64,000 nt of DNA from Mobula hypostoma (taxonomy: Eukaryota): positions 143,904,001 through 143,968,000 of the forward strand of contig NC_086097.1 of assembly GCF_963921235.1 (NCBI RefSeq), written 5' to 3'. This document shows, in pieces, positions 19,965-63,130 of this stretch (the stretch's first letter is position 1; each line of letters starts with the position of its first letter). The notes under the pieces are model-generated. The model did not search any database and was not told the DNA's origin. It was given only the letters and a program-made list of their open reading frames with translations. The position numbers and the translations under genes are program-made.

Positions 19965-22256
19965 GACAAAGGTGAAGGTATAACCTATACAAAAGGGACG
20001 AGTTACACCTGAACTCAAGGGGAATCAATATCCTTTTGGGCAGGATTACTGGAACTACAGGGAGGGTTTGCACTAGTTTGGCAGGGGAATGATAAAGTGG
20101 AGGATGGGGCAAATGGTGTAAATGTATATGCAGCATGCAGAGAGACTGTGGGGAAAGACAGACCGTGGAAAGGGGCATCGTTGCAGTTGGATGGAATGAA
20201 ATGTGTCTATTTTCATGACGGAAGTATCAGGAACAAGGGCAATGAGCTTAGAGAATGGGTCAGTATATGGAACTACAACATTGTTGCCATTACAGAGGCT
20301 TGGCTATCACCAGGGCAGGAATGGCTCCTGGGTGTTCTGGGCTTTGGATGTTTCAAAAGGGACAGGGAGAGATGTAAAAGAGGTGGGGGAGTGACATTGC
20401 CAATCAGGGAGAACATCGCTGTTTCAGAAAGGGAGGATGCTGTAGAAGGATTGACTACTGAGACAGTACGGATAGGAGTCAGATACAAGAGAGCAAACAC
20501 TCTAGACCCACCAATAGCAATAGAGATACTTAGGTGAACATCACAAGGCTGATTTTGTAGGAAATTATGATGCAATTAGGCAGGAATTTTGGAGTGTAAA
20601 TTCATGATGGATGTGCACAACAGAAATGTGGAGATTGTCTAGGGAGCACCTGGATGGGGTCTGAATAGGTTTGTCCCATGGAGGCAGGCAAAGGATGGTG
20701 GGGTGAAGGAACCATGATTGGCAACAGATGTGCAACATCTAGTCGGGAGAAAGAAAGGAGTGTGCTTAAGGCTTAGGAAGCAAGGATCAGAATCACTAGA
20801 GAGTTACAAAATATCCAGGAAGGAACTTAAAAATAAACTTAGGGGAGCTCGAAGCAGTCATGAAAAGGGCTTGGCAAGAAAGATTAAGGAAAATCCCAGG
20901 GCATTCGACACATATGTGAAGAATAAGAGGATGACTAGAGTGAGGGTAGGACTGATTAGGGATAAAAGAGGAAACGTGTCTGCAGACAGAGGAGGGAGGG
21001 GAGGTCCCTAATGAATATTTGCTTCAGTATTCACCAGTGAGAGGGACCTTGATGAATGTGAGGTCAGCGTAGTGAGCAATGTGAGGCTAATATGCTGGAT
21101 CATATCAATGTTAAGGAAAGAAGATGTGCTGAAACTTCTGAAAAACATTAGGATAGGTAAGTCCCCAGGGCCAGATGAGAATTATAGATAGATGAGAGTC
21201 ACAGTAGTGCTGGGCAAACTACTGGAAATGAATCTTAGGCACTGGATATACGAGCATTTGGAGAAGCACAGTCTGACTATGGATAGCCAGCATGGTCTTG
21301 TGAGGGACAGGTTGTACCTCATGAACTGATTGAATTCTTCGAGGAAGTGACATAACAAATTGATGACGGCAGAGCAGTGGATGTAGTGTATGTGGATTTT
21401 AGTCAGGTGTTCGACATGGCTCTCATGGAAGACGCACTCAGAAAATCAGGAGGCATGGGACCCTGAGAAAAATGGATTCAGAACTAGCTTGCCCACAAAA
21501 GGCAGGAGGTGGTAGTTGATGGAATGCATCCTGCCTGGAGGCTGGTGACCAGTGTTGCCCCACAGGGATCTGATCTGGGAGCCCTTCCATTTCTGATTTT
21601 TATAAACAACTTGGTTGAGGTGGGTTAATGAGCGTGCGGGTAACATGAAGGCTGGTGGTGTCGTGGATAGTGCAGTGGTTGTTGCAGGTTACAACAGGAC
21701 ATTGATAGGATGCAAAGCTGGGCAGAGTGGTGGCAGATAAAGTTCAATCTGTGGTGATTCACACTGGAAAGTCCAAATTGAAGTAGAATACAGTGTTAAT
21801 GGCATGATTCTTAACAATGTGGAGGAATGGAGGGATCTTGTGGTTCACACCCATAGCTTGCAGCACAAGCTGATAAGGTTGTTAAGGCGTATGTTATGTT
21901 GGCTTTCATTAGTCAGGGGATTGAATTCAAGAGACGCAGCTCTATAAAATTCTGGTTAGATCATATTTGATTTATTGTGTTCAGTTCTGGTCACCTCATT
22001 ATCCGAAAGATGTGGAAGCTTTAAATAAGGACGGAGGAGATTTACTGGGATGCTGCTTGGATTATAGAACATGTGTTATGAGGATAGGATGAGCCAGCTC
22101 GGGCTTTTCTCTCTGGAGTGAAGGAGGATGTGAGGTGACTTGATAAATGTATATCAGATGATAAGAGGCGTGGATACAGTGGACAGCCAAGGGGCTTTTT
22201 TCCCCCAGGGTAGAAGTGACTAATATGACGTGGCAAATTTTTAAGGTGATTGGAGG
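19965..22256 (+). mobile_element. Decayed, internally deleted CR1 (ORF1 end through ORF2)
   Basis: ORF1 end DELHLN..EGLH*, APE VAITEAW/RGGGV, RT remnants. Confidence 0.88.
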
Positions 22257-22887
22257 AAAGTCTAGGGCACATACATATAGCTAGAGTGCCTAAGAATTGC
22301 GCGCAGTACTGTAGTAATTTTATGTGATGATGAACCCGATTCTGATTGTGATATGGGTCTCTGTTATGGACTGAGTGTGGGAAGGGTTCAGGGAGAGGGG
22401 AATTATGGTTTGGAAAAGAGGAAGAGAGAGGGGAGGGAGCAGGAAGCACATTCTGTAAGAGAGACAGGAGAGACATTCTGTAATGATCAATAAACCAATT
22501 ACTGAGAATCTGATGACCTTCTCAGGGCTGACTGTGTCTGCACCTGCATCACCCCCTGCCACTGGCACTCCCTCTCTGCCAACTGTCCCACACCCTTCCC
22601 GTGGCGCTCCACCCTTGCCGTTCCCAACACCCTTTGCTCCTGCCAAAGGGTCTTGGCCCAAGACATCGACTGTACTCTTTCCATAGATGCTGCCTGGCCT
22701 GCTGAGTTCCTCCAGCATTTTGTCTGTGTTGCTCGGATTTCCAGCATCTGCTGATTTTCTCGTTTACCCTTTGCTCCTGCCAGATTTACAAACTTTCTCT
22801 CCGCTTCACATTGACAAATACGGTACTGTGCAAAAGTCATAGGCACCCTAGCTATATACATGTACCTAAGACTTTCGCACAGTACTG
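22257..22887. mobile_element. Composite Tc1-like element bounded by two inverted palindromic mini-MITEs
   Basis: Units 22257-22311 (left end truncated) and 22821-22887 are each self-complementary and mutually inverted. Confidence 0.65.
22646..22765 (+). mobile_element. 120-bp Penelope pLTR fragment with 17-bp TSD
   Basis: accctttgctcctgcca at 22629-22645 and 22766-22782. Confidence 0.85.
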
Positions 22888-23334
22888 AACCTCACACACA
22901 TGAAGGGGGTTGCTGTTGTCTGCAGTCAGTCATTCCATCTTCAGATATTACTACTGAGCTTCCTCAGGGCAGAGTCCTAGGCTCATAATCTTTTACCTTC
23001 TTCATTTCATCATAATATCTGGCATGGGCGTGTTTGCTGATGGCTCCACAACCTCTTCCCAGCTCCTCAGCAAATGAAGGAGTCCCTGTCTGCACGCAGC
23101 AACATCCACACAGCAATTAGGCATAAACCGATAAACGGAAAGAAATATTTGTACCAGGCAATAACCATTCCCAACAAGAAAATAAATCCAGCCATCTGGC
23201 CTTGATATAATACTGTACTGCAGTTATTTATCCAGCAAATTTCATTCCACAACTTCTATCATCAATGGGGACAAGGACTGCAAGCACCCTCAGGGTTCCC
23301 TCCAACTTCACATACCATCCTTCATGATCTCTAA

Positions 23335-23979
23335 ATCGAATTAGATTATGAAGATACTCAGTCCTCGTTTATTGTCATTTAGAAATGCATGCATTAAAAA
23401 ATGATATAATGTTCCTCCAGAAAGATATCACAGAAACACAGGACAAACCAAGACTAAAATTGACAAAACTACATAATTATAACATATAGTTACAACAGTG
23501 CAAAGCAATATTGTAATTTGATAAAGAGCAGACCATAGGCACGGTAAAAAAAGTCTCAAGTCCCGATAGCCCCATCATCTCACACAGACGGTAGAAAGGA
23601 GAAACTCTCCCGGCCATGAACTCCAAGCACCGCCAACTTGCTGATGCATTGGAAGCCCCCGACCGCAGCCGACCCTGAGTCTGTCCGAAAACTTCGAGCC
23701 TCTGACCAGCCCTCCGACACCGAGCACCATCCACTGCCGAGCGCTTCGACCCCACCCCGGCCGCAAAGCAACAAGCAAAGCCAAGGACTCGGGGCCTTCC
23801 CCTCCAGAGATTCTGGATCACACAGTAGCAGCAGGCATTTCAGGAGTTTCACCAGATGTTCCTCCGTGCTCTCATGTCTGTCTCCATCAAATCAGGATTG
23901 TGCACGGCACCCTACTTGACAGATAACAGATATCATTCACCGGAGTGGCCACTGCAAGCTGCGTTGCGCCGCCATCTTC
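23335..23979 (-). mobile_element. Non-autonomous LINE-derived retroelement (GC-rich 5' part, AATAAA 3' part)
   Basis: Starts GAAGATGGCGGCG (YY1-like); ends AATAAA..(aatct); interrupts an old LINE fragment. Confidence 0.6.
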
Positions 23980-24518
23980 ATGGAATTGCATACCCAAAAA
24001 CACTGGGAAAGAGCTTTTGCTAGTGGGATTGCAGTGATTCAAGAAAGCAGTTTGCAGTCATTTTCTCAAGGGCAATAATTTCAAATTGCTATTGTGGCTG
24101 GCTCCATGCGGCCAAGTTTCATTGCTAATCACTTACCATTGGCTCCCTTTATGCAAGAGCTCCATGGGGTTCAGAAATGTACTTCATATTCTTTGCTTCT
24201 CTCAGCAAGTTACAAAGTCTGGGGATTTGCTGAATGGGACAATTGATCAGCTATTTGTACATTTATTTATATAGGATGGCTCTTGCAGTTGAGCCGTCAG
24301 TTCTGACATACTTACTCATACCCACTGCCCATTGCAGTCATTCCCCTGTTGGAAACAACCCCTTCAGTAAATGCTGGAGATTAGATTTTCCAGTCATTCT
24401 CCTTCCTTCCCTAATGGGAATTTTCCCACTTCAGGGCCCCTCCCACCTAGCTGTGTTATTTCTCAGCATCAGCAATCTGTCAGGGACAAACTTCTCCTTT
24501 CTCAACACCGAGGCAACA

Positions 24519-24531
24519 GTTGCTAAGCAAC
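24519..24531. promoter_or_regulatory. RFX X-box-like palindrome
   Basis: GTTGCTAAGCAAC with adjacent GGCAAC half-site. Confidence 0.35.
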
Positions 24532-27500
24532 GTAGGTAAGCTCATTTAAAAAGACTGAAGTAATGGACTTGCCCTAGAGAAACACAGAGAGGAGGTGTGG
24601 AGAGATAATTTGCTCAGTCAGCTGCCAGTGTGCATTGTTAGAGTGACACTGCCTAGAGCTCACACCCTCCCTTTCCTATTCCATAGTCAGCTTCCCACAA
24701 AATATCTCAAATATAAAAATTCCAGTTTTACTTAATGTTTCAGGAAAAGTTCAGTGAACTGGCTAAATAAATGATCATTTTAGCCAGTGAAAGTGACAGC
24801 CAGAAAAAGCCCAGATGACTAGCGAAGCCTGCGCCACACGCCATGGTTTTATTTGTCACCCCCGCCCCTTGTCTCACTGACAAGTGAAATCCTGATAAGG
24901 CACAAGAACCAGATAAAAATTAAGCTAGATAGACAGAAGATTCTTTCCTTAATGATTCAAAATTGGTCTAGTAAGCCACACCATCCATTGTGAAAAGGGA
25001 CATCACTGTAACTATTACAATACGAAAGAATCTGTTAAGCCTTTATAGGTGCCTCACACTGACAGCTGAAAGCACTAGCAGTTGTCCATAGTGAGAGCTA
25101 CAGCCAGCCCAAGCTCACTCTTCCACTTCCATGCCCACATCGTCGCCAGGACCTACCCCGAGTCTGATACAGCAACAACACTGGACAGGTTTTGCCAGCT
25201 TGCATCCCGCGAGCTTCTTTGCCATGTTTGTTTGATGCCTCAGCTGCTGCTTCTGTTACTGAAGGGAGGCCCAGACCCAAAAAAATAGGCCTGGTGACTG
25301 TGAAGGATTGGCGATATACTGTATCTCCACTCCACTTCAGGACGACATGTGACCAGGAGAGAAAGGTGCTGCTGGTTGGGTTCCTTTGCATCTGCTGCTC
25401 TTGTGCTTATTTGCAATCGAGGCCGTGGCTTGGAAGGCGCTGTCAGAGGAGTCTGGGAGGATAATGCCATACATTTTATTGGCGGGACACAATGCAGTCT
25501 CTTTGACTGATGGTGGAGGGAAGAAGTGTTTCGAATGGTTGATGGGATGCTATCAAAATGGAGTGCTTTGTCCCGGGTGGTGTTGAAACTCTGGAGAGAT
25601 GCTGGTGCTGCACTAAAACAGGCAAGCGCAGAGTACTCCATCACACTCATATGATTCGTAGGTTTGGTGAAAAGCCTTTGTATGAAATAATTGCTATACT
25701 TGCTATCCATCTGGGGCAAAACTAATTCATTCTCTAGAAGAGTTGACTAACATGACTACATTCCTGTACCCAAGTTAGAAATTGAAATCCCAGTATAGGT
25801 ATTCTTCTCTTGCTCGGATGAATTTAACTCCAAAAGCACTTCAAGAACACCATCCAGACAAAGTTGTGTACTTGGCTGACACCCGGCACACCATCCTAAA
25901 AATTCATTATTTCCATTACCTGCACACCATAGCTGTAAAATAAGCCACCGGCAAAATGCATTGATTTTGACCAAAGGACAGGAACCACACATCCCAAGCT
26001 TGCAGTTTCTACCACCAAGAAGGGCAGGTAGAGAAGGAGAATGAGAAGGCGACTAACTCTCCTGAAGTGGAAATATATTAGCATTCCTTCATCAACTTTG
26101 GGTCTAAATTTCAGAAGAAGGCAGCTCAACTGCATTCACAACAATAATGAGGACTGAGAAATAAACATCGCCCCTGTCAGACAAGGCCTTATTCTGTTAA
26201 TGAATTAAATAATACATTCTAGGGATATGTTTATCTTTGCGATAGAAATTTTCTAGTTTTTTCACAACATTCATCCCATCGAGTCTACACCAGCTCTCTG
26301 AGCAATTTCACCTACCCCGCTCTCTGCACTTAACTCCCCCAACCCAATGGTTCTACCACTACTCTACACTAAGAGTAATTTTCTGTAGACAATTAATCCA
26401 CCAAATCACACTCTTTGAGATGTGGGAGAAAACCTTAGCATCTAGTCTAAGCCCACATTGGTTACAAGGAAAATGTATGGATTCCATACAAACAGCACCT
26501 GAAATCAGGATTATACCCAGATCACTGGAGTGTGAGGTAGGAAAACTACCTGCTGTACCACCATGCAAGTGAATCAACTATCAGATGAGACATTAAAGCA
26601 AAATGTTCTGTGCTTGTTTCCATTGATGTTCTAAGTTTACTGGCATTTTTTTTAAGAACACAGAGCTTCCCTGGCTGAAGTTCTTCCCTCAAAGTAAAAC
26701 ACCTGAAAAAAACTAGATTATTCTGGGACAATACACAAAATGCCAGAGGAACTAAGCAGGTCAGGCAGCATTTATGGAGGGGAAAGAACAGCCAACGTTC
26801 CATTAGATTATTCTAGAATCTTAGTCTACAGAAACTTCTTGCTGCTTCAGTTCATGAACAATAAGGGCCAACTACACAGAGTACACCTGGAGCTACATAA
26901 GGGATAGCACTGGTTCAAAAGTAACAGGTTGATTTACAAAATTAAAAAGATTAGCTTTAATTGTCACCTGTACATTGAAATATCGAAACATTTGTGTCAG
27001 TAACCAACGTAGCCTGAATAGGTGCTGAGGCAGCTCACAAGTGTCACCAAGCTTCCGGTGCAAACATAACATAACCACAAATCATTAAACTGAACCCTCT
27101 TTGGAATTATCTAATTTTGTGTCCACTTCTTACATAAGTCCAGCACCTTCCATAGACACTTTCTACCGGTAATTGCAAACTTACCAGTGTTATAACATTT
27201 TATAATTTGCTGTGGTGGGAATGAGCTTGTATTGTTTATACAACATACAGTCAACAACCACATCCACCTGTAATTAACTAACTCCTTCCACACACATTAC
27301 TTTTCTCTTAATTGCCAAAATTGACATTCAGCATTGAGAAACCTCTGGTGGGAATAGGTTTACTCGGTCTTCTGAGAGCAATTTAATTTGGCTAACAAAT
27401 CATTTGAGACCTAAAGAGATGCTGGTGAGGAAAGGAACTTGACTGAAACCCATTACATCTCTTTGTTTGTTGTAATTTGGTCAGATATCCAAGATTCAAG

Positions 27501-28534
27501 GCAGTCAGATTATTTAAAGATACAAATTGTTCTTTTTTTAAATTTTCTTCATGAAGAATGGGAAAAATTCCAACATGCAGCATTCATTGTCAGCATCAAG
27601 TTTTGCCTGAATGGGAACTGTATCGATTAGATATAGAACAAAGCTCCTTCTGTGTTGTCCTGTCAGACCTTTGAAGGCCGTTGTCCTGTCCCCAAACCAT
27701 ACAAGCCTCCTTGTAACTACAGAGCTCTTCTTTGGCTCGGTGCCTTCCAACTAAACCTGTTATCACAATTGTACCACATAGCTTAGATTAAGGTAATGAA
27801 TCTCAGCCTGGCTGGCAACCCTGAAGGCTACTTACCACTGTGTTTTCCACATTGCAAAAAAACCCTTTCTAGTACTTCTGGCACAAATCGGACGGAAGAA
27901 TGACAGTAGACTGTCCAGGCCCTTGTGACAATGACCCACCTTACTGAAATATAAATCTCAGTGCTGATTATTCAAATCGATCTGACCTACATAGCTTGTC
28001 AGAGGGAGTGTGTTACATTTCCATTGCCATTTGTAAGAAGTTCTTCCAAAATACAGGACTGAACAGTATGACTTCAATTTTGAAATTGCAACTCATTTAT
28101 TGACCTACTAGAAGAAGTCATCTGTATGTGGCTGTGTGCAATCGTTTTATCATCTTAAACACTTCGATCCCTTTCACATTGATCTTATAAAAATAAAGGG
28201 CAGAAAAACAGATCTTTATTGTAACTTCTGCCTTAAAGAAAACAATAATGAAAATAGGTACTCACTGCTGAACATATGTGCGATGAAACTCATCCGGAGG
28301 GGAAATATGACCTCGGTTGCAAAAAGCATTTATTATTATTTATGGAGTTAACAAATTCTGGTAATCACAGATGGAGATAATTTACGAACTTTAAGAGGTT
28401 GCAATTTCCTAGGCTCTTCCACAGAAACTGCTTGATAATGGTACATTGTTAAGAGTCTCATCGGTCAAATATATTGAATGATTCAAATCTCATTACTTGC
28501 CAGGATGTAGTGACTGAACTTGACAATAAATAAA

Positions 28535-35006: not shown

Positions 35007-35042
35007 AGTCGACGTTTCAGGCCGAGACCCTTCGTCAGGACT
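35007..35042 (-). ncRNA. Minimal type I hammerhead ribozyme (intact core)
   Basis: AGUC-CUGACGA-AGGGUCUCGGCCU-GAAAC-GUC-GACU. Confidence 0.8.
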
Positions 35043-35441: not shown

Positions 35442-37277
35442 CTCCACTCCCTCCGCGCTAATCCTAACCTCACTATAAAACCAGCCGATAAGGGGGGTGC
35501 TGTTGTAGTCTGGCGTACTGACCTCTACCTTGCTGAGGCACAGTGACAACTCGCGGATACCTCCTCTTATTTATCCCTCGATCGTGACCCCACTAAGGAG
35601 CACCAGGCCATTGTCTCCCACACCATCACCGACTTTATCCGCTCAGGGGATCTCCCATCCACTGCTACCAACCTTATAGTTCCCACACCCCGCACTTCCC
35701 GTTCCTACCTTCTACCCAAGATCCACAAACCTGCCTGTCCTGGCCGACCTATTGTCTCAGCTTGCTCCTGCCCCACCAAACTCGTTTCTGCATACTTCGA
35801 CACGGTTTTATCCCCTCTTGTTCAATCCCTTCCTACCTATGTTCGTGACACTTCTCACGCTCTTAAACTTTTCGATGATTTTAAGTTCCCTGGCCCCCAC
35901 CGCTTTATTTTCACCATGGATGTCCAGTCCTTATATACTTCCATCCCCCATCAGGAAGGTCTCAAAGCTCTCCGCTTCTTTTTGGATTCCAGACCTAACC
36001 AGTTCTCCTCTACCACCACTCTGCTCTGTCTAGCAGAATTAGTCCTTACTCTTAATAATTTCTCCTTTGGCTCCTCCCACTTCCTCCAAACTAAAGGTGT
36101 AGCTATGGGCACCCGTATGGGTCCTAGCTATGCCTGCCTTTTTGTTGGGTTTGTGGAACAATCTATGTTCCAAACCTATTCTGGTATCTGTCCCCCACTT
36201 TTCCTTCGCTACATCGACGACTGCATTGGCGCTGCTTCCTGCACGCATGCTGAGCTCGTTGACTTCATTAACTTTGCCTCCAACTTTCACCCTGCCCTCA
36301 AGTTTATCTGGTCCATTTCCAACACCTCCCTCCCCTTTCTAGATCTTTCTGTCTCTGTCTCTGGAGACAGCTTATCCACTGATGTCTACTATAAGCCTAC
36401 TGACTCTCACAGCTATCTGGACTATTCTTCTTCTCACCCTGTCTCTTGCAAAAATGCCATCCACTTCTCGTGATTCCTCCGTCTCCGCCTCATCTGCTCT
36501 CAGGATGAGGCTTTTCATTCCAGGACGAGGGAGATGTCCTCTTTTTTTAAAGAAAGGAGCTTCCCTTCCTCCACTATCAACTCTGCTCTCAAATGCATCT
36601 CCCCCATTTCATGCACATCTGCTCTCACTCCATCCTCCTGCCACCCCACTAGGAATAGGATTCCCCTTGTCCTCACCTACCACCCCACCAGCCTCCGGGT
36701 CCAACATATTATTCTCCGTAACTTCCGCCACCTCCAACGGGATCCCAGCACTAAGCACACCTTTCCCTCCCCCCCCCCTTCTGCTTACCACAGGGATTGC
36801 TCCCTACACGACTCCTTTGTCCATTCGTTCCCCCCATCCCTCCCCACTGATCTCCCTCCTGGCACTTATCCTTGTAAGCGGAACAAGTGCTACACATGCC
36901 CTTACACTTCCTCCCTTACCACCATTCAGGGCCCCAGACAGTCCTTCCAGGTGAGGCGACACTTCACCTGTGAGTCGGCTAGGGTGATATATTGCGTCTG
37001 GTGCTCCCGATGCGGCCTTCTATATATTGGCGAGACCGGACGCAGACTGGGAGATCGTTTCACTGAACACCTACGCTCTGTCCGCCAGAGAAAGCAGGAT
37101 CTCCAACTGGCCACACATTTTAATTCCACGTCCCATTCCCATTCTGATATGTCAATCCACAGCCTCCTCTACTGTAAAGATGAAGCCACACTCAGGCTGG
37201 AGGAACAACACCTTATATTCCGTCTGGGTAGCCTCCAACCTGATGGCATGAACATCGACTTCTCTAACTTCCGCTAA
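35442..37277 (+). pseudogene. PLE RT + GIY-YIG endonuclease frame with two in-frame TGA stops
   Basis: IKPADKG, MDVQSLY, GVAMG, RYIDD, CKRNKCYTC linker, VIY..YIGET; TGA at 35544 and 36471. Confidence 0.92.
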
Positions 37278-38730: not shown

Positions 38731-38740
38731 GGTTATGTTT

Positions 38741-44050: not shown

Positions 44051-44109
44051 GTTAACTTTCCTTTGTAGGAAAAGAGTAGACTTTGAACTGATTTGAGGAG
44101 CTTCAACCA

Positions 44110-46535
44110 ATAAGACCATAGGACAGTAAAGCAGAATGAGGCCATTCGGCCCATCAACACTGATACACTATTTCATCATGGCTACTCCATTTTCCCTCTC
44201 AAACCCATTCTCCTACCTTCTCCCCGTAACCTTTCATGCCTTGACTAATCACAAACCTATTAACCTCTGCTTTAAATACATCAAATGACCTGGCCACCAC
44301 AGCCATCTGTGGCAATGAATTCCACAAATCCACCAACCCCTAGCTAAATAAATTTCTGTTCTAAATGAACATCCGTCTAATCTGAGGATGTGCCCTTTGG
44401 TACTAGACACCCCCACTATAGGAAACATAATTTCTACTGAGCCCTTTCAACATTCAGTAGGTTTCAATGAGATACCCTCCCCCCCCCAACGATTCTTCTA
44501 AATTCTACAAGTAAAGGCACAAAGCCATCAAATGCTCCTCATGCAATAATCATTTAATCCCCAGAATCATTCTTGTGAAACTCCTCTGAAACTTCTCCAA
44601 TGTCAGGACATCCTTTCTTAAATAAGGTGCCCAAAACTTCTCATAATATTCCAAGTGAGGCCTCATCAATGCCTCATAAAACCTCGGCATTACATTGTTT
44701 CTTTTATATTCTAATTCTCTCAAAATGAATGCTAACATTGCCTTGCCTTCACTTCTACTGACTCAAACTGCAAGTTAAACTTTAAAGAATCCTACACAAG
44801 GACTACTAATTCCCTTTGCATTTGGATTTCTGAATTTTTTTCCCCATTTAGAAAATAGTCTATGCTCTTATTCCTTTTACCACAAGTGCATGACCATACA
44901 CTTCCCAGCACTGTACTCTATCTGCCACTTCTTTGTCTATTCTTTGAATCTGTCTAAGTATTTCTGCAGCCTACCTGCCACTCCATGTATCTTTGGGATG
45001 TATCTATTCTGTGCCTTCTGATTGCCCACCCCCACCCGCCCCCCCGCCCGAAACTCCAGCCATTGATTTTCTGCCATCATCCTGCTATTTTCCCTTTCAG
45101 TCATCTTTGGCCAGCTCCTCTCCCATGCCTCTGCAATTCCCTTTACATCTGACTTCTCCCTCTGAAATTTCCGGGTGAATCTTATCATATCATGGTCACT
45201 GCCGCCTGAGTGTTCCTTTACCTTAAGCTCCCTAATCATCACTGTCTCCTGAGTGTTCTTTTACCTTAAGCTCCCTAATCAAATCCAGTTCATTATACAA
45301 CACTCAATTCTGAAAAGCCTTTCCCCTTGTGGACTCAACCACAAACTGTTCGAAAAAGCCATCTCATAGGAATTCCACAAATTCTCTCTCTTGACATCCA
45401 GTACCAATCTGATTTTTCCAGTCTACCTGCATATTGAAATCCTATGACTATTGTACCATAGGGCTTTGACATGCCTTTTCTATCTCCCATTGTAATTTGT
45501 AGCCCACATCCTGGCTACTGTCCCGAAGCCTGTATCTAACTCCCATCACGGTTTGTTTACCCTTACAGTTTCTTAACTTACTCCTTCCGATCCTATGTCA
45601 CTTCTTTCTAAGGACTTGATTTCATTTTTTACCCATAGAACCATGGCACCTTCTCTGCCTGCCTGCCTTTATTTTTTGCTACAATGTGTATACTTGGTTG
45701 TTAAGCTTCCAACTATAATCTTCTTCAAGCCATGACTCAGTGATGCCCATTATGTCATAACTGCCAATATTTAACTGCACTACAAGATCATCTACCCTAT
45801 TCCACATACTGCGTGCTTTGAAATATATGCACCTTCAATCCTGTATCCATCACCCTTTTGGATTTTGTCACCATGTTACACTGCAACTCATCTCACTGAC
45901 TGTAATTTTGCCCTGTCATCTGCCTGTCCTGCCTGACAACTTCACTACACATTGCATCTGCAGCCACATCACCCCAGTTCCCAACTCTGTCAAATTAATT
46001 TAAACCCTCCCTACCCACAAGGACATTGGTCCCTCCAATGTTCAGGTGTAACTCATCCATTTTGTACAGAACATACTTCGGCCAGAAGAGATCCCAATGA
46101 TCCAGAAATCTGAAGTCCTGCCCCCTGCACCAGTTCCTCAGCCACACATCTGTCTGCCAACTTATCCTATTCTTAGCTTCACTGGCACCTAGCAGTGGCA
46201 GCAATCCATAGATTACTATTTACTTTTCAACTTTTTACCTAACTGACTAAATTCTCTCTTCAGGACCTCCTCCCTTTTCCTACCTATGTAATTTGGTGCC
46301 AGTATGTACCAAGACCACCAGATGCTCACCATCCCCCTTCAGAAAGTCATGGACCCAATCTGAAATGTCACTGACCTTGGCACTTGGGAGGCAACATACC
46401 ACCTGGGTATCTCTTTCACATCCACAGAACCTCGTGTCCACTCCCCTAACTATGGTATCCCCTATCACTACTACACTCCTCTTCCCCCTTCTTCCCTTCT
46501 GAGCCACAGCACCAAACTCAGTGCCAGGGACCCGG
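44110..46535 (-). mobile_element. Decayed, internally deleted CR1 (ORF1 esterase to 3' tail)
   Basis: VIGDTIVRG, FLDHWD..LHLN..GLN*, GSDHDM, RPHLEY; (taagacca) tail. Confidence 0.9.
45196..45281. repeat. 43-bp direct tandem duplication
   Basis: tcactg..taccttaagctccctaatca occurs twice. Confidence 0.85.
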
Positions 46536-46671
46536 TAGGAAGGGAGATGAGAAAAATGCCTCTATGAAATACTAGGGAACGTCAGGTAAAAATGGGCAAA
46601 CAAAGGAGAAGTCAGAGACACAAATTTATCAGTGGAAAGCTTAAACAAGTAAAAACTCTTGGCATTTCTTG

Positions 46672-49134: not shown

Positions 49135-49139
49135 GTTCC

Positions 49140-50954: not shown

Positions 50955-51525
50955 GGAATTCTGCAGATGCTGGAAATTCAAGCAACATACATCAAAGTTG
51001 CTGGTGAACGCAGCAGGCTAGGCAGCATCTGTAGGAAGAGGTGCAGTCGACGTTTCAGGCCGAGACCCTTCGTCAGGACTAACTGAAGGAAGAGTGAGTA
51101 AGGGATTTGAAAGTTGGAGGGGGAGGGGGAGATGCAAAATGATAGGAGAAGACAGGAGGGGGAGGGATAGAGCCGAGAGCTGGACAGGTGATAGGCAAAA
51201 GGGGATACGAGAGGATCATGGGACAGGAGGCCCAGAGAAGGAAAAGGGGGAGGGGGGGGTAAAAACCCAGAGGATGGGCAAGGGGTATAGTCAGAGGGAC
51301 AGAGGGAGAAAAAGGAGAGAGAAAGAAAGAACGTGTGTATATAAATAAATAACGGATGGGGTACGAGTGGGAGGTGGGGCATGAGCGGAAGTTAGAGAAG
51401 TCGATGTTCATGCCATCAGGTTGGAGGCTACCCAGACGGAATATAAGATGATGTTCCTCCAACCTGAGTGTGGCTTCATCTTTACAGTAGAGGAGGCCGT
51501 GGATAGACATATCAGAATGGGAATA
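50955..51525 (-). mobile_element. Young Penelope 3' fragment/pLTR
   Basis: Near-identical to 37140-37710. Confidence 0.9.
51045..51080 (-). ncRNA. Minimal type I hammerhead ribozyme (intact core)
   Basis: Identical to the motif at 35007-35042. Confidence 0.8.
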
Positions 51526-52096
51526 AAATCTAAGATTGCCTGTCCCCTAGACGGCTTGAGCACAGGCTGCTCTAAAAAACCATCTCGTAGGCATTCAACA
51601 AATTCTCTCTCTTGCAATCCAACAGCAACCTGATTTTCCCAATCCTCTGCATATTGAAGTCCCCTATTACAATCGTGACATTACCCTTATAACATGCCTT
51701 CTCCAGCACCCTTTGCAACCTCAACCACATCTTGGTTACTATTTGGAGTCCTATATATGATTCCCATAAAGGTTTTTTCACCCTTGCAGTTTCTCAACTC
51801 CACCCACAAAGATTTGACATTCTCTGACCCTATCTCACCTCTTTCTAAAGATGTAATTCCATCTCTTATCAACAGAGCTACACCACCGCCTATGCCTTCC
51901 TGCCTGTCCTTTGATACAAAGTATATCCTTTGATGTTAAGCTCCCAACTATAGCCTTCTTTCAGCCATGACTCAGTGATGCCCACAATGTCATACTGACC
52001 AATCAGTAATTGCACCACGAGTTCATCCATCTTATTCCAAATGCTACACGCATTTAAATGCAGCGCCTTCAGTCTTGCATTCTTCACCATTTAGAA

Positions 52097-52628
52097 ACAT
52101 AGAAAATAGGTGCAGGAGTAGGCCATTCGGCCCTTCGAGCCTGCACCGCCATTCAGTATGATCATGGCTGATCATCCAACTCAGAACCCCACCCCAGCCT
52201 TCCCTCCATATCCCCGATCCCTTTAGCCACAAGGGCCATATCTAACTCCCTCTTAAATATAGCCAATGAACTGGCCTCAACTGTTTCCTGTGGCAGAGAA
52301 TTCCACAGATTCACCACTCTCTGTGTGAAGAAGTTTTTCCTAATCTTAGTCCTAAAAGGCTTCCCCTTTATCCTCAATCTGTGACCCCTCGTTCTGGACT
52401 TCCCCAACATCGGGAACAAGCTTCCTGCATCTAACCTGTCCAATCCCTTTAGGATTTTATACATTTCAATCAGATCCCCTCTCAATCTTCTAAATTCCAA
52501 CGAGTGTAAGCCTAGTTCATCCAGTCTTTCTTCATATGAAAGTCCTGCCATCCCAGGAATCAATCTGGTGAACCTTCTTTGTACTCCCTCTATGGCAAGA
52601 ATGTCTTTCCTCAGATTAGGGGACCAAA
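52097..52628 (-). mobile_element. Young 5'-truncated copy of the same CR1 family as 1-4273
   Basis: High identity to 1-470; 3' stem-loop GGTGCAGG..CCTGCACC; candidate TSD atttagaa (52089-52096, 52629-52636). Confidence 0.92.
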
Positions 52629-53175
52629 ATTTAGAATTTTGTCTTGTGATACAAATTAACTCTTTGCTCTGTTTACAGTAGTACCCAATCACTGATTTGT
52701 CCTTCCTTAGATTCATATTACATATTACATCATCTACTTGTAAACCTGCTGGCTCATCCTCAGCTCTATCATATTGGTTCCTGTGCCCCTGCCATATTAG
52801 TCTAAACCACTCCCAACAGCTCCAGCAAACCTACCCACAAGGATATTGGTCCGTCTCAGATTTATGCAACCCCTCCATTTTGGACAGATAACATCTGCCC
52901 CAGAAGAGGTCCCAATGATCCAGAAATCTGAATCCCTGCCCCCTGCTCCAATTCTTCAGCCACGCATTTATCCGCCACCTCATTCTATTCCTAACCTCTC
53001 TGTCACATGGTACAGGCAGCAATCCGGAGATTACTACCCTTGAGGTCCTGCTTCTCAGCTTCCTTCCTAACTCCCTGTATTCTATTTTCAGGAGCTCCTC
53101 CCCTTTTCTTCCTATGTCGTTGGTACCAATATGTACCACAACCTCTGGCTACTCACCCTCCCTTTTCAGGATATT

Positions 53176-53985
53176 CATGCACAACAGTCTCTAGAGTTTA
53201 CAGTAAATGGTGTGATAGGCAAAAAAAATCCAGTGAGTGAAATGAGAGGATTTAGAGGAGAATAACCAGACTGATTGAAGATGACAGAATCAGATTTATT
53301 ATCACCGGCATGTGACATGAAATTTGTTAGTTTAGCAGCAGCAGTTCAATGCAATACAAAATCTAGCAGAGAGAGAAAAAAAAAATAAAATAAAACATAA
53401 TAATAAACAAGTAATTCAATTACATACATTGAATAGATTTTAAAAATGCACAAAAATAGAAATACTGTATATTATAAAAGTGAGGTAGTGTTCAAAGCTT
53501 TAATGTCCATTTAGGAATCGGATGGCAGAGGGGAAGGAGCTGTTCCTGAATCGCTGAGTGTGTGCCTTCAGGCTTCTGTATCTCCTACCTGATGGTAACA
53601 GTGAGAAAAGGGCATGCCCTGGGTGCTGGAGGTCCTTAATAATGGACGTTGCCTTTCTGAGACACTGCTCCCGAAAGATGTCCTGGGTGCTTTGTAGGCT
53701 AGTGCCCAAGATGGAGCTGACTAGATTTACAAACTTCTGCAGCTTCTTTTGATCCTGTGCAGTAGCCCCTCCATACCAGACAGTGATGCGGCCTGTCAGA
53801 ATGCTCTCCACAGTACAACTATAGAAGTTTTTGAGTGTATTGAAGACCAAGATAACGCAAATAACCATGCATTACAACAGTGGTGTGCAGAAGAGCAGCT
53901 TTGAATGCACACCACATTGAACCTTGAAGTGGTAGGTTACAGCAGCAGAAAATCATGAACATAAAGTGGCTACTTTATTCAGTAC
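53176..53985 (+). mobile_element. Tc1-family remnant interrupted by a Rex/Babar fragment (53287-53842, minus strand)
   Basis: TTVSRVYSKW remnant and AAAGTGGC repeat; insert encodes NFYSCTVESILTG..LPSGRRYRSL. Confidence 0.75.
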
Positions 53986-54736: not shown

Positions 54737-56171
54737 CATTGTCTAAAATAAGTATTCTCCCCCTTCAAGTCAGTATTTAGTAGATGCACCTTTGGCAGAA
54801 ATTACAGCCTTGAATCTGTGTGGATAGGCCTCTATCAGCTTTGCACATCTGGACACTGCAATTTTTCCCAATTTTTCTTGACAGAACCACTCAAACTTTC
54901 TTAGATTGCATGGGGATCATGAGGGAACAGCCCTTTTCAAGTCCAGCCACACATTTTCAATTGGATTGAGGTATGGACTCTGATTTGACCACTCCAGGAC
55001 ATTAATTTTGTTGTATTAAGCCATTCCAGTGTAACTTTGGCTTTATGCTTGGGGTCATTGTCTTGCTGGAAAACAAATCTTTTCCCAAATTTCAGTTCTC
55101 TTGCAGACTGAATCAGGTTTTCCTCCAGGATCTCCCTGTATTTTGCTGCGTTCATTTTACCCTCTACCTTCACAAGCTTCCAGGGCCTGTTGCAGTGAAG
55201 CATCCTCACAGAATGATGCAGCCACCACCATGCTTCATGGTAGGATAGTCTGTTTTTGATGATGTGACGTGTTTGGCTTATGTCAAACATTGTGTTTAGT
55301 CTGATGGCCAAAAAGCTCAATTTTGGTTTCATCAGACCATTGAACCTTCTTCCAGCTCACTTCAGAGTCTCCCACATGCCTTCTGTCAAATGCTAGCCAA
55401 TATTTCACATGAGATTTTTTTCCACCCAACAGTGGCTTTCTCTTTGCCACTCTCCCATAAAGCTGTGACTGGTGAAGCACTCAGCCAACAGTTGTTGTAT
55501 GTGCAGTCTCTCCCATCTCAGCCACTGAAGCTTGTAACTCCTCCAGAGTTGTCATAGGTCTCTTGCTGGCCTCTCTCACTAGTCCCCTTCTTGCACAGTT
55601 ACTCAGTTTTTGAGGACGACCTGCTCTAGGCAGATTTACAGCTGTGCCATATTCATTTTCTATCTTGATGATTCACTTAACTGTACTCCAAAGGGATATT
55701 CAGTGCCGGAAATTTTCTTGTATCTATCTCCTGACTTATGCTTCTCAATAACCTTTTTGCAGAGTTGCTTGGAGTGTTCTTTTGACTTCATGGTGTAGTT
55801 TTTGCCAGGATACTGACTCACCAGCAGTTGGACCATCCAGATACGGGTGTATTTTTACTATAATTAATTGAAACACCTTGACTGCACACAGGCGATTTCT
55901 ATTTAACTAATTGCGCAACTTCTAAAACCAATTGGCTGCAGCAGCGATGACTTGATGTGTCATATTAAAGGGAATGAATACTTAATGGAATCAATTATTT
56001 TGTTTTATATTTGTAATTATTTTAGATCAATTTGTTTTCACTTTGACACAATAAAGTTTTTTTCTGTTGATCAATGTGAAAAAAGCCAAATTAAATCTAC
56101 TGTGATTCAATGCTGTAAAACAATAAAACATAAAAACTTCCAAGGGGGATGAATACTTTTTATAAGCACTG
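54737..56171 (-). mobile_element. Tc1-family DNA transposon with decayed transposase
   Basis: GRVAKRKPLL, WSDETKIELFG, FQQDNDPKH; inverted ends AGTATTCTCCCCCTT / AAGGGGGATGAATACT; TA flanks. Confidence 0.92.
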
Positions 56172-56904
56172 TATTTTTGTCCCTACTTCCACATAATGAC
56201 ATAGATTAATAGTCAATGCATCACAAATGACAGTGAAGGAATTCTGCTAATAATGCATTTAAAATGGGCCAGCACAGATGCCCCTAATTAAATGCCCAAC
56301 AAGAACATGATATCTGTGGAACACAGACAAAATCCTGGAGGAACTCAGTAGGTCAGGCAGCATCTATGGAGAGGAATCAATAATTGACATTTCAGGTTGA
56401 GACCTTTCATCAGGACTTAAAGGAGGGAGGCAGAGGCCAGAATAAGAAGATAAGGGATGGGGAAGGAGTCCAAGTGATATTGAGAAGACCATACCAGAAT
56501 CACCATGTTTTGTGTGTGTTCCTCAAGATTTCCTGCATCAGCAAACTCTCTTGTGCTTATGATTATCTGTGTGGATCACTCTGCCATTAGGAGAAGCGCC
56601 TAATAGTGTTAACCCAAGGGGCAATCCTTGCATAAGACCTCCCCCGAGTAAGGGACTTCATTAAGAGTTAGAAGTACAGCTGCAGGCTTCCCTACATTAG
56701 AGAAACTTTCCTTGTGGGTGGTTGCAAATTGCAAATTAATGTTTTTATTAGAATATAATAAAATGATACCAAATATTTTTATAAACTTAATTTCAGAATA
56801 TCAAAATCACTAGCAAAGCAATGTCTACTGCCTTTACCTAATCTCCCGAAAAAGTAATAGACTGATAAGCTGCACTGATCTGATGTAATTGAGATCAACA
56901 TTCA

Positions 56905-57365
56905 AAATTCTAAGTAAATTTATTTTCAAAGTAGATACATGTCACCATATACTATCCTGAGATTCATTTTCCATGAGCATTCACAGTAAATATGAAGAAA
57001 CACCACAGAATCAATGAAATCTGAGCACAAAACGGACAAACAACCAATGTACAAAAGACAAAAAACTTCAAATACTAAAAGAAAAAAACAAACAAAATAA
57101 TAACAATAAATAAATAAAAAATAGACATCGAGAACCTGAGATGAAGAGTCCTTGAAAGTGAGAACAGTTCAGTTTTGGGGTGAGGCAAGTTATCCCCTTT
57201 GGTTCAAGAGCCTGATGGCTGAGGGGTAATAACTGTTCTTGAACGTGGTGGTGTGGATCCTGAGGGCCCCGTACCTCTTTCCTGATAGCAGCAGTGAGAA
57301 GAGTGTGAGGTCTTGGTGGTGGGGCTCCTTGATGATGGATGCTGCATTCCTGTGATGGCACTCCT
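56905..57365 (-). mobile_element. Rex/Babar-like 3' fragment
   Basis: Homologous to 5228-5680 and 63135-63600. Confidence 0.75.
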
Positions 57366-58164
57366 TCTGTTGTCAGTTAAAAAGCAGTTAATGTTCGACT
57401 ATATTTTTGTAAGACAGGAGTCACATTTCTTTCTTCTCCACACCTTTCTTGCTCTATAATACAAATTCTTCCTGTGGTGCCATACCTTGTAAAGTGCTTT
57501 AAATTTCTGCCAATAATTTCTACAAAAACCTAACAATGCAATCATCACATTTATTGATAATAACTTCTTGTTCCTCAACCTTGAAATCTGAATATATATT
57601 CTGAAATACCTTACTATGTCCCTTTGATATTCCAAAGTATTTTTCAGAAGTTTAAATAATATCGCAAATGATGGGTGAATTTATACCTGAAGCTGTTTAT
57701 CACCGTATCATTAACAAATGGAATAAATATAAACATTAATTATACTAGAAGCCAGCTTCCAAGTCATGGGTTATGATGTGCATAGCTGCTTATATGATGG
57801 TTCAAATTACAATAAATGAAATGTTATGGATTCCAGGTGTTTTTATTTAAAATTAAGATAGTCTTACAAATGCTAAAGCTCCTTCCATTGTAGGGGAGTA
57901 GATACATGACAAGTGTGCACTCCAGTTCTGACAATTTTTCGTACCACTGGACCAAGATTTCTGAGGTCTAGAGAGTGGCACTGCCAAGTGCAACGGCCTT
58001 TTCACTATAAAACCCCTCCTGCACAGGTCTTTCTCCGTGCAACTCTTCACACAGTTGATGAGCTACACAGACAAACGTCATCATCGGAAACAACGGACAA
58101 CCAACCCACACTCAGCTAACTGACTGATTACTGGTTTGACTTGCAGGAATAAATTGAGATAAAA

Positions 58165-58680
58165 AAGAACGAGGTGTCGAGAAGAGGACGACCAGGATGT
58201 TTCCTGGATTTGAAGACAAGTGCTATAAGGTGAAGATGGACAGACTTGGGTTTTTTCTCCGGAGCAGTGGAAGCTGAGAAAAGACTTATTAGAAGCACAT
58301 AAAATTATGACAAGCCTCAGCAGAACAGACAGCTGGTATCCTTTTCCCAGGGTGGAAATGTTTAATCCTAGAGGACATGCATTTAAGTTGAGGGTGGAAA
58401 GCTCAAAGGAGTTGAGTGGGAAAATTTTATTTTTGCACAGAGAGTGTGAGGTGACGATGCTGGAATGTGCTTCCGGGGTGGTAGAGGAAGCAGGTGCGAA
58501 AGAGGCTTTTGAAAGGCTCTTGGGTAAGCATATGAATATGCAGAGAATGGGGGTGGGGGTGGGGAGATGTGGGTCATATACGCACAGAAGGGAATAGGTA
58601 TCATTAGCTTCATTAGGTTGGCACAACGTTGTGCACCCACAGACCTGTTCCTGTTCTGCACTGTTATGTGTTCGATGTTC
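58165..58680 (+). mobile_element. CR1 3' fragment
   Basis: FPRVEMFNPRGHAFK; 3'UTR and tail. Confidence 0.75.
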
Positions 58681-59299
58681 TCTAAAAGATCTGGAGGGGA
58701 TTATAGGCAACAATAGGCAAGAAGTCAAAAGAGAGAGGATGCAGACAAATTATGGAGAATAAAAAGAAAATGATGAGCTGAAAAGAAAGGTAGAGGAGAT
58801 CAGCTTGTAGAGGACAGCATCAGGATGCTGCTTCCTCAGAGCACCATCAACCTGGCTCAGTTGAGACTTCCAGTGCTCTTTGTATGGGGTTTGCATGCTT
58901 CCTTTCAGATTACATTGGTTTCTCACTGGTCCTTCATTTACTTGCATAGTCCTAAGGCATTTAGTCATAGAGTAACTCAACAAGGAAGCCAGCTCTTCGG
59001 CCCAACTTAACATGCTGACCAAGATGACCATCTAAGCTAGTCCCATTTGCCCTCACATATCCTATATTCCTCTGAACCATCCTTAACCACATACGTGTCC
59101 AAGTGCCTTTGAAAATGCTGATTGGTAGGCTAATTGTCTCCTATAATCAATGTAGACGCTAGGAGAATTTGGGCGGAGTTCAAGGGTAGGTGAAAAAGAA
59201 TGCGTAACAGGGAAATAACTGGGAGAATGTGATTGACAGATAGATGTGCGAGCAGCATAGATTTGACGGAGTGAATGGCATTCTTCCATGTTGTAAGAG

Positions 59300-59640
59300 A
59301 ATTTAAGAGAAAGCAAAGATTTCAGGAGACGGTGAAAAGGGAAGAGTGGAGCAAGAATTAAAACACCAAAACAACAAAGGTGGGGGAGTGGTCAGAGTGA
59401 GAAGGGACAAATAAATAAGCAGAGAAAAGAGAAGGAAAGAGAGAAAAGTGGAAAGGAAGATTGTGGAAGGAAATAGAAAATCAAGAGGGAAGGCAGAGAG
59501 GAAACCAAACTGAAGAAAGGGAATGAAGAGTATTGGTGGTATAAGCAAAAAATGAAAAAATACATGAGAGAAAGAAGGAAAAGAGAATCTGAGGGCAGGA
59601 AAGCAAAGAGGGAGGAAAAGAGAAAATAGGAGGAAAATTA
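59300..59640 (+). repeat. Purine-rich (GA) low-complexity tract
   Basis: Base composition. Confidence 0.7.
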
Positions 59641-60949
59641 CTGTAATGGAGCACCTCATCACTTATTCACATGATGATGAGTTTTGCCACAGCAGTTTCC
59701 CACATTACAAATGAGACAAATGGCTAGTCAGTGTGTTTATGTTGATGTGGTGAGGAGATAATAGCCACAGTAAAAGGTGCTGTCAGAACTTTTAATCCTT
59801 GTAGCTGGGGCAATCATCCAACGAGAGATGTCTCCTCCTATACAGTATTTCAATGAAATGGACAGGAAGAGGACCAGCAACAGGGGAAGGGCAGAAAGAT
59901 TTCGCAGAGAAATGATGACACAAAAAAGAAACTAGTGAGGACAAATAAAGTGAAAGACAAGAAATGCAATTGTAACTCTTCCTGCGTTTTGCTGTTCTTC
60001 TGGAAATACGTTGAATAACGATGACATCATTTACAATTAAATAATGCACACTGTTGGTTTCAGTTACTCAAAATATTTATGACTAGTGCCATAGTGTAGA
60101 GCTATAATTAGATAAGAGCTGATGCAGGAACAGAGCAGAGTCATGCATCATCCCAGCTTCACTTCACTTCGCTTCCCTTCTCTCCTCCTCACCAAGCCTA
60201 CTCTTCTCATCCAGTTCCCCTCCCACCACACTGGAGCCAGTCAACAACAACTAATTATCACTTGCTGGAGACACTGGGTGTGTGAATTTTTTTCTGTCTT
60301 CATCTCACAGCAGCATATCACATTTCTCTGGTAATATTTGGTTCTCAGACCTCCACCTGCCATTCCTGACATTCTTTGCCTGAGTTCTTGAGGAAGGATT
60401 GTGGACTGAATACAAATGGTGTTGTCCCTTTACACACTTACTTCGCCTGGCTTCACTATGAAGCCACTATTACTTTAATATAATCACCAACCACCTTGCA
60501 GAACAATGGCACAGGATTCATCTGAACAGGCTGCTGCACAGATAAAAATGACTTTAACATAGCATTCAGCAAGTTGGATCATATTTCTGGGAGGGTCAAC
60601 ACCAGTCATTAATGTAGGATGACTTTTTACACAAGATTGTTTTGTACTTTGGTGCGTCTCTGGTGTCTAAGTGAGGTCAGCAGTTCTATAGCGCTAGAAA
60701 TTCATCTCAATTCAGTTTACTAACAATTGGCATTGGTATTGGTTTATTATTGTCATGTACCGAGATACAGTGAAAAGCTTGTCTTAAATCCTATTTATAC
60801 AGATAAAATCATGACACAGACTGCACAACAGTAACAATGCAGATTAAAGAGTAAAATCTACCAAAAGAGCACGGTACAGGTAAACGATAAAGTGCAAGAG
60901 TGAAGTAGATCGTGAAGCCAAGAATCCATCTGGTGGGCTGCAATCAGCC

Positions 60950-63130
60950 AGAGAGGTCGTTTGTTGGTGACACAGCACCAAGGTTAAAAGGAGCTCCGGC
61001 GCTTTCGGCTCTTTTTGGCAGGCTGCAATCAGCACGCGGCCAATAAAAAGAAGGGAGGAGTAAGTGGAACCATCAAGGTTGGAGTCGGCAAGAGTTAGAG
61101 TGGTCTGGCTTTGGCTCAGCAGGCTTAGGCGAGAACAAGTTTGGGCAAAAGCACAGGCGGAGGTTTGAAGCAAGTAAGTAGTTTCTATTAAGTTTTTGTT
61201 GTTAGTATATAACTAGTGTACGGAGAATGAGCCCAGAGTTAGTGATTTGTTCCGTGTGTGAGATGTAGGAAATCTGGGAGACCTTCAGTCTCCTTGATAA
61301 CTACATCTGCATGAAATGCACTGAGCTGCAGCTCCTTAGAGACTGTGTTAAGGAACTGGAGATGCAGCTCAATGACCTTGAGTTCTTATGGAAAAGTAAG
61401 GTGGCGATAGTTAGGAACTACAGGAAGGCAGTTCCCCTAAGTTGCAGGAGGCAGTACCTGGGTGACTGTTAGGAGCAGGAAAGAGTTTAAGCAACCAGCG
61501 CAGAGTGCCATTCCCCTCTATAATAAATGTATTGCTTTGGATAATGTGGGAGACGACCTACCACAGGAAAGCCACAGCGACCATGTCTCCAGCACTGGGT
61601 CTGGCTCTGTGGCTCAGAAAGGAAGGTGGAAAGTGGGAAAGGGGAGTGCTGTGGTGATAGGGGGTCCTATGATGCTGAGATACATCCTAGGATGTGCTGG
61701 GACACATCATTAGTGACGTAACTTGGGGCCATCGTGCGTTTCGGGCCTTCAACATCAGATACTCTCGCCCAGGCGAGTCAACCAGGGTTGATCAGGCCCT
61801 GGCTTGTGTCCAACCAGCTTTGGTCTAAGGGTCACACCTCTTGATCCATAGCCACCTGGAGGCTCACTCAACAACCCCTGTGACAGTCCACTTGGCTCTT
61901 TTCATTGCAGCCTTTATTATGCCAAGGAGAGAGTAGGTTCTGCGGAGCGAGCAGTCAGGAAAACCTCAACACCCCACCTCTATAGTCTCACATCGTGCCA
62001 TCCTCCCCTGTCTCTGACACTGCCTTGCCAGCTCCTAGCACTTGGCTTTCTTACACTCAAGCACCTCCTCAATCTGGTCTTCCCAAAGTACTGGCAGTCC
62101 TACCGTGACCACCTGCTTTGAGGTTTCTGATAGATTGACGATGTCAGGCCCCAGTGGTGATGATGTAATAAAGTCAGGGAACTCTAACTGCTTGCCAAGA
62201 TTGACTTTCAGTTGCCAGTCAGATGTTGTGGCGAGAAAGCCTGCTGATGATCTGAGCTGAGGCTGGGGTTGACAAAGGCTATGGGCTCTCTGTGTTGGTG
62301 GAGCTGCTTACAGTTGTTAATGGCCAAGGAGGCATTCTCTGCTACTACTTTCATCATCTGGTTATGAGGCCAGCGGTAGCGTTCTTCTCCCAAGGCTTTT
62401 GAGGATGTGTTCCAGGGTCTGTCTGCCAGAACAGAGAGGACATGATGGCACCTCACACTTGCGCCAAGTAAAAAGGTTCGCTGGGCTAGGCAGGACATCA
62501 GGGACAACAAACACAGCCTGGATCATGAACTCAATGCACTAAGGTTCTGCCTGCTAGATGTTGGACCAGATTTTTCCCTTTAGCGCACCTTTGCACCTTG
62601 TGCAAGCTCCCAGCTGCCCTATTCCTTTAACTAGAAGAGTAGAAAGCAGGTTCTACAAACGTGAAAGAGACACCCGGATGGTATGTTGCCTCTCAGGTCG
62701 AGGGTCAGGGATGTCTCGGATGGGGTCCATGGCATTCGAGAGGGGAAGGGTGAGCAGCCAGAAGACATGGCACAGATTGGTACCAATGACTTCAGTAGGT
62801 AAAGGGAGGAGGTCCTGAAGAGAGAGGGAGTTTGGCAGAAAGGTGAAGAGTAGGACCTCAGGGGTAGTGATCTCTGGATTGCTGACTGTGCCATGTGCCA
62901 TTGAGGGTAAGGATATGATGAACGGGTGACTGAAGTACTGGTGTGGCAGCAGGGTTTCAATGTCGACGTCATTGGGACAGGTTACACCTGAACCCGAGGG
63001 GGACCAATATCCTTGTGGATGGGTTTCCCAGAGCTGTGGGGAAGGGCTTAAACTAATTTGGCAAGGGGTTGGGAACCTGGGTGATAGGGTTAAGGACGGG
63101 GCAGTAGCTATACTGTACAACTAGATGCAG
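60950..63130 (+). mobile_element. 5' part of a decayed CR1 (5'UTR, ORF1, ORF1/ORF2 junction) interrupted at ~61670-62620
   Basis: MSPELVICSVC, YICMKC..QLLRD, AVVIG, MVCCL, IGTND, GLN*. Confidence 0.88.
61672..62560 (-). mobile_element. Hero-like (R2 group, restriction-like endonuclease) non-LTR fragment
   Basis: KALGEERYRWPHNQ, then DWQLKVNLG..FP..GPDIV..LPVLWED..KKAK..IEVG (degenerate PD-(D/E)xK RLE). Confidence 0.8.

Follow-up and report, generated by a model that had tools for sequence, protein, structure and literature searches.

In most vertebrates, the dominant retrotransposons belong to the CR1 group (PMC13343379), and how long interspersed nuclear elements (LINEs) translate their second open reading frame (ORF2) has been described as an open question (PMC3894237). 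Prevailing models are of reinitiation, and one paper argues for the need to produce ORF1 apart from ORF2 (PMC3708506). A precedent for another route comes from Dictyostelium TRE5-A and TRE3-A, the ORF2 of which requires a −1 frameshift according to a figure legend (PMC5911963). Classic −1 sites combine an X_XXY_YYZ heptamer with a stimulatory structure 5–9 nucleotides (nt) downstream (PMC3542737), and U_UUA_AAC, G_GGA_AAC, A_AAA_AAC and G_GGU_UUU are among the shiftiest heptamers (PMC5009743); here and below, cited statements refer to the parts of each article that were searched. We analysed a 64,000-nt stretch of the Mobula hypostoma genome (NC_086097.1, positions 143,904,001–143,968,000; hereafter the window) that carries an intact CR1 copy and four old ones, together with related sequences from other loci and hosts. 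From their sequences, ORF2 of esterase-type CR1 LINEs is most likely translated through programmed −1 ribosomal frameshifting on the final two codons of ORF1, giving an ORF1–ORF2 fusion. The junction is a general trait of esterase-type CR1 elements, not only of the four old copies in which it was first described.

The ORF1–ORF2 junction of the intact copy

The intact copy, which serves as our reference, lies at about 4270–1 on the reverse strand (−), outside the range of the four old junctions, and its 3′ end is cut by the window edge. A probable 5′ untranslated region (3967–4270 (−)), assigned from the sequence of this copy, precedes ORF1 (3031–3966 (−)), which encodes 311 residues with CxxC pairs, a long helix and an SGNH esterase (PF13472, E = 5e-16); the ORF1 profile A1 matches structure 4c1b (E = 6e-43). 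ORF2 (26–3046 (−)) lies in the −1 frame, measures 1006 codons from stop to stop and encodes an APE endonuclease and a reverse transcriptase (RT), with PF03372 and PF00078 both above cut-off. We label the element CR1 from this layout (an APE–RT ORF2, and an ORF1 with zinc-finger-like cysteines, a long helix and an SGNH esterase) and from the relatives of its ORF1 in amniotes. The closest relative of the ORF1 is 98% identical and is itself named Mobula hypostoma.

ORF1 ends in Leu–Asn–stop. Its last codons are ACT TTA AAC, and the heptamer T TTA AAC (3034–3040 (−), read from 3040 to 3034) has the X_XXY_YYZ pattern in the zero frame, with the stop codon TAG (3033–3031) directly 3′. Read in the −1 frame, heptamer and stop give Phe-Lys-Leu (F-K-L), and a stop closes this frame two codons before the Phe. 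A G-rich tract (3014–3023 (−)) that begins at +11 after the heptamer is a candidate stimulator.

The first ATG of ORF2 (2422–2420 (−)) encodes residue 209, adjoining GDFN at 210. The motifs NARS (80), ETW (107) and YRPP (180), which together with GDFN we take to play the roles generally attributed to them in APE domains, all precede this Met, so a protein started at residue 209 would lose most of the endonuclease. The 260 nt after the ORF1 stop contain five ATGs, all of them outside the ORF2 frame. Because a slippery sequence stands before the stop and ORF2 in many cases lacks a start codon, a one-base slip back is the most likely route to the second protein. In contigs of four runs no variant was seen at 3031–3043 among the 40 rows listed of 150, and these data were not used as evidence.

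Junctions and ORF1 tails beyond the intact copy

The preliminary description had reported four further heptamer/stop sites in old CR1 copies of the window, each followed by a related −1-frame peptide, and we find the sequences, positions and strands of these sites to be as it gave them. TTTGCAC TAG (20067–20076 (+)) belongs to a decayed copy in which the −1 frame continues into APE-like sequence, TTTAAAT TAA (45995–46004 (−)) to a decayed copy that has lost 18 nt upstream and contains stops downstream, TTTAGAC TAA (52797–52806 (−)) to an internally deleted or chimeric copy, and CTTAAAC TAA (63047–63056 (+)) to a decayed copy. Sequence aligning to the 3′ part of ORF1 lies upstream of all four. 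The departures from TTTAAAC fall at a different position in each, and TTTAAAT remains a canonical X XXY YYZ heptamer. In the copy that carries the third site (52157–53178 (−)), the 3′ end of ORF2 follows the junction and linker directly. Identity to the intact copy is 81% in the 5′ part of this copy and 93% in the 3′ part, so that it either has lost internal sequence or is a chimera from two subfamilies.

The five window copies form 10 pairs, whose mean identity is 0.69 at −7 to +15 and 0.65 at −90 to −8, falling downstream to 0.56 at +16 to +45 and 0.51 beyond. As conservation at the junction hardly exceeds that of the ORF1 sequence upstream of it, the four copies alone cannot tell recoding from ordinary conservation of ORF1. 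Their −1-frame peptides read as described, but the conserved stretch is short and a poor sign of constraint on a peptide: outside rays and sharks only F-K-L and the Gly at codon 7 remain. That the heptamer, the stop and the G-rich tract yield it as a by-product is the better reading. The proposal of nucleotide-level constraint on the junction, such as a −1 recoding signal would bring, is supported by sequences outside the window rather than by the four copies.

The DNA among these sequences came from scanning metagenomes for an upstream ORF1 motif lacking the heptamer, which returned at least 28 loci. Eight were dropped: five chance matches (L011, L017, L020, L027 and L031), one locus with the junction missing (L025), one at which the contig ends (L030) and a near-duplicate of L018 (L028). 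The 20 loci used, 13 of them from one assembly, mostly look amniote-type, and their tails suggest a bird origin. Together with the five window copies they give 25 junctions, those bearing indels having been placed by eye. The heptamer is exactly TTTAAAC in 15 of the 25, with the wobble T present in 22, TTA in 20 and the final C in 23. As a control, in the 20 copies with a readable upstream motif, an invariant Leu is encoded by CTG (13), CTT (5) or TTA (2), and an invariant Gly uses all four of its codons. Background use is 38 of 369 Leu codons for TTA, 72 of 147 Asn codons for AAC and 0.23 of four-fold wobbles for T, or about 0.012 for T, TTA and AAC jointly. The codons that carry this wobble T include ones for Ala, Ser, His, Cys, Thr and Gly. 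Across these copies, which partly share ancestry, conservation of the heptamer extends to synonymous positions.

All five copies with a long open frame (the window copy, L007, L015, L016 and L032) read T TTA AAC TAG, and the codon before TTA differs among them (Thr ACT, His CAT, Ala GCT, Ser TCT and Cys TGT). None uses the alternative Leu or Asn codons that the preliminary description had named as speaking against a recoding signal. Upstream of F-K-L, the −1 frame meets a stop at a distance of two codons in the window copy, L008, L015, L016 and L032, and of five codons in L007. A long open −1 frame with no early AUG is found in the window copy and L007, where the first ORF2-frame Met lies inside the endonuclease and no AUG of the SART1 type occurs at the ORF1 stop; in L015, L016 and L032 the first Met precedes the endonuclease. 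Binomial p-values computed on 14 'lineage' representatives were set aside, as copies with indels pass the ungapped filter and independence is overstated.

In viral and prokaryote collections, protein-based locus scans brought up no vertebrate CR1, and the DNA-pattern matches there were due to chance only. An intact invertebrate-type esterase/APE–RT element (L001, 584–5661) is present in a bacterial genome bin, where it is probably host contamination. Its two ORFs share 157 nt, in the −1 frame, and have an imperfect G AAT TTT site and an ORF2-frame ATG in strong context, an arrangement that differs from vertebrate CR1.

Leu–Asn (LN) forms the C terminus of ORF1 in 87 of 120 homologues among the matches listed, and homologues with host names come from rays, sharks, coelacanth, frogs, turtles, squamates and a hummingbird. 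When 50%-identity representatives were searched with a profile, there were 12,411 matches, of which 150 were listed; the block-V motif is recognisable in 108 of these. A tail of 22–45 residues follows in 93, of which 48 end in LN and 10 in Gly–Asn (GN), the LN columns of the search profile slightly favouring LN enders and no other type. Pooling these tails with further matches and four earlier ones gave 118 tails, mostly 50%-identity representatives. The terminal tripeptide fits one of the four heptamers named above in 73 of the 118, compared with 0.8% of interior tripeptides. Among the 46 tails without terminal LN or GN, 14 contain a fitting tripeptide (3.2 expected), 12 a weaker fit and 20 none.

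The residue before the terminal pair changes with heptamer type (xLN versus QGN). Before LN, at the end of tails of 25–39 residues, a U-ending codon is impossible in only 1 of 54 cases. Before GN, the residue is Gln in 13 of 18, allows a G-ending codon in 18 of 18 and is never one with pyrimidine-ending codons only (0 of 18). When LN enders are taken alone, the test on residue −3 gives p = 0.009 at 80% dereplication. On a quick tree of 114 of the 118 rows, with support from the Shimodaira–Hasegawa-like approximate likelihood ratio test (SH-aLRT) only, LN appears in the vertebrate clade and at three or more further positions, one of which falls within a group of QGN rows (support 82), and one SKN row pairs with an SGN row as its sister (support 97). 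None of the nine tails of one fully supported clade ends in LN or GN, and the crystallised ZfL2-1 esterase aligns to the profile only up to position 319 of 323, which together indicate that the esterase fold does not need Leu–Asn. F-K-L stands at the junction of database proteins frame-fused through an indel, from rays (P0036, P0056 and P0121), of P0173 and of the distant family P0150, a reading that only T TTA AA in their DNA allows.

Four longer proteins were considered as natural ORF1–ORF2 fusions and rejected; esterase and endonuclease are joined in P0121 alone, which has the look of an indel copy. A phmmer search with the ORF2 N terminus gave no match among solved structures. In one clade (P0231, P0242, P0262, P0265 and P0120) Lys–Asn is kept about 10 codons before the ORF1 stop, compatible with A_AAA_AAC away from the stop, and another ORF1 clade has tails ending in FF(R/H) or GF. 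Four CR1 ORF1 proteins (P0021, P0080, P0026 and P0121) are filed under unrelated names or hosts, namely a Pseudomonas hydrolase, a flatworm protein, and ribosomal protein S24 and hydroxyacid oxidase isoforms; these are contamination or gene-model errors.

Proposed frameshifting and its alternatives

By programmed frameshifting, most ribosomes would stop at the TAG and release an ORF1 protein (ORF1p) of 311 residues. In a minority, the Leu-tRNA in the P site and the Asn-tRNA in the A site would both slip back, and this tandem slippage would produce an ORF1–ORF2 fusion of 311 + 1002 = 1313 residues. Slippage would thereby set a high ratio of ORF1p to ORF2 protein (ORF2p), as in gag–pol systems.

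A number of observations weigh against this scheme, or against its extending to every lineage. Folding the 90 nt downstream of 22 junctions, with pseudoknots outside the model, revealed no conserved 3′ hairpin (z-scores −2.4 to +1.4), and the five clean copies showed no common long-range partner of the G-tract. The sites thus lack the shared stem of a classic −1 signal. An in-frame Met occurs early in ORF2 in some copies (codon 5 in L008, L016 and L032; codon 23 in L015) and precedes the endonuclease in P0036 and P0121, so initiation is possible in some lineages. Descent accounts for part of the codon conservation, as 13 of the 20 loci come from one assembly and the wobble base of an upstream Asp is also kept (GAT in 18 of 20 control-readable copies). 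Leu310 closes the last predicted helix of ORF1 and may also be under protein constraint. Among the ORF1 tails, a compatible tripeptide is missing from 20 of 118, and the residue −3 test on LN enders alone loses significance at 70% and 60% dereplication (p = 0.21 and 1.0). The G_GGA_AAC class is deduced from protein only; DNA for the QGN families was looked for and none was found.

The lack of a conserved stem 5–9 nt downstream suggests that the shift is weak and driven by the heptamer, or that it is helped by the G-tract at +11. G is present at +11, +12, +13, +14 and +15 in 21, 22, 24, 23 and 21 of the 25 junctions, and these positions include −1-frame wobbles (background use of GGG, 74 of 217 Gly codons). 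A two-tier G-quadruplex is predicted in only 4 of 22 junctions. A weak shift could suffice, little ORF2p being thought to be needed (PMC3894237), and by analogy the G-tract may act as does the unstructured stimulatory motif of PRRSV, the virus that causes porcine reproductive and respiratory syndrome.

The best-surviving alternative, to which we give a low probability, is that ribosomes terminate at the ORF1 TAG and restart nearby on ORF2, at an AUG or a non-AUG codon, the conserved bases serving termination or restart. Reviews describe such a route as proposed for L1, where it is independent of the AUG of ORF2, and as shown for SART1. It would fit the missing frameshift-type stem, the in-frame ATG three codons past the stop that is present only in L008, L016 and L032, and the in-frame TTG, ATT, GTG and CTG codons that precede the endonuclease in the ORF2 of the window copy. 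The codon at that ATG position nevertheless varies, encoding M, S, W, R, D or A in other copies, and restart gives no reason to expect either that the ORF1 frame carries an X XXY YYZ pattern or that two heptamer types alternate in step with the preceding residue.

A requirement of ORF1p for a C-terminal Leu–Asn, combined with inherited codons, is largely refuted and in our judgement very improbable. It would account for a window junction only as conserved as the ORF1 sequence upstream, for the position of Leu310 at the end of the last modelled helix and for the conservation of some upstream wobbles. It does not account for a wobble T that persists across so many preceding residues, or for TTA at 20 of 25 junctions against 2 of 20 at the other invariant Leu. 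Moreover, LN stays terminal although tail length varies, QGN takes its place in another clade, and Leu–Asn is missing from the solved esterase and its clade. That the heptamer and G-tract form some other RNA signal (transcriptional slippage, splicing or packaging), with ORF2 reached otherwise, is the least credible reading: G is kept at wobble positions of the tract (+11 in 21 and +14 in 23 of 25) with no partner stem, yet the signal is tied to the ORF1 frame and stop, the shift site has no long homopolymer, and the alternation is between known ribosomal heptamers.

For programmed frameshifting itself, a broader scheme can be put forward only tentatively. In it, esterase-type CR1 elements of vertebrates and of several distant animal lineages would have long kept −1 frameshifting while swapping among the four shiftiest heptamers, the esterase–endonuclease–RT fusion would be their working enzyme, and the vertebrate stimulator would be the unstructured +11 G-tract, bound by protein or folded as a G-quadruplex, rather than a stem. 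Natural G-quadruplex stimulators were anticipated, not known, in 2016 (PMC5009743). If frameshifting is the route to ORF2, the CR1 enzyme would be redefined as a fusion and the annotated start of ORF2 corrected, the calling of 'intact' CR1 copies would change, and many natural frameshift cassettes with an unexplained stimulator would become available.

Other elements and comparison with known systems

Elsewhere in the window, a Penelope-like element (35547–37277 (+)) encodes an RT (PF00078) and a GIY-YIG-like domain just under cut-off, with a single in-frame stop (36471–36473) between them, and a second fragment of the GIY-YIG end lies near 51079–51546 (−). The 3′ part of another LINE-like ORF, with a PF09004 domain and weak similarity to CR1 ORF2, occupies 16158–16982 (−).

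The mechanism proposed here is classic; the literature searched gives no account of its host element, of the heptamer switching or of the lack of a stem. That search, outside which lay Haas 1997/2001, Kajikawa 1997, Repbase entries and supplements, returned no report linking CR1 to ribosomal frameshifting. The text searched of PMC5009743 mentions mammalian LINEs with unusual initiation and does not name CR1, and the word 'frameshift' does not occur in the searched main text of PMC13343379, PMC3905857 or PMC4316615.

Canonical vertebrate CR1 and ZfL2-1, of the L2 clade, have two ORFs with an esterase ORF1 and an APE–RT ORF2, as here (PMC13343379, PMC3905857), but the ZfL2-1 chain lacks the Leu–Asn end. 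L1 and SART1 also carry a second ORF on a bicistronic LINE RNA; they make a separate ORF2p, SART1 through UAAUG, whereas in CR1 the frames overlap at the heptamer and the AUG is missing or variable. The Dictyostelium TRE5-A and TRE3-A elements, retrotransposons of the APE type that lack long terminal repeats (non-LTR), provide a precedent for −1 frameshifting in LINEs, in another host group and with another ORF1. In PRRSV, an unstructured C-rich motif 11 nt 3′ of the shift site stimulates frameshifting and binds nsp1beta with PCBP (PMC5009743); the CR1 tract begins at the same distance, but is G-rich and has no known binder, and the likeness is one of analogy only.

The junction most resembles retroviral and LTR-element gag–pol junctions, such as that of Rous sarcoma virus, and the U_UUA_AAC site of the coronavirus infectious bronchitis virus (IBV). 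In these systems, as in CR1, a canonical heptamer lies near the end of the first ORF and the enzyme ORF is in the −1 frame, and a fusion is made at a low ratio, as we propose for CR1. Unlike them, CR1 is a non-LTR element without a known protease to cut the fusion and with no 3′ stem or pseudoknot found, stems being the only structures modelled, and it joins an esterase ORF1 to an APE–RT ORF2.

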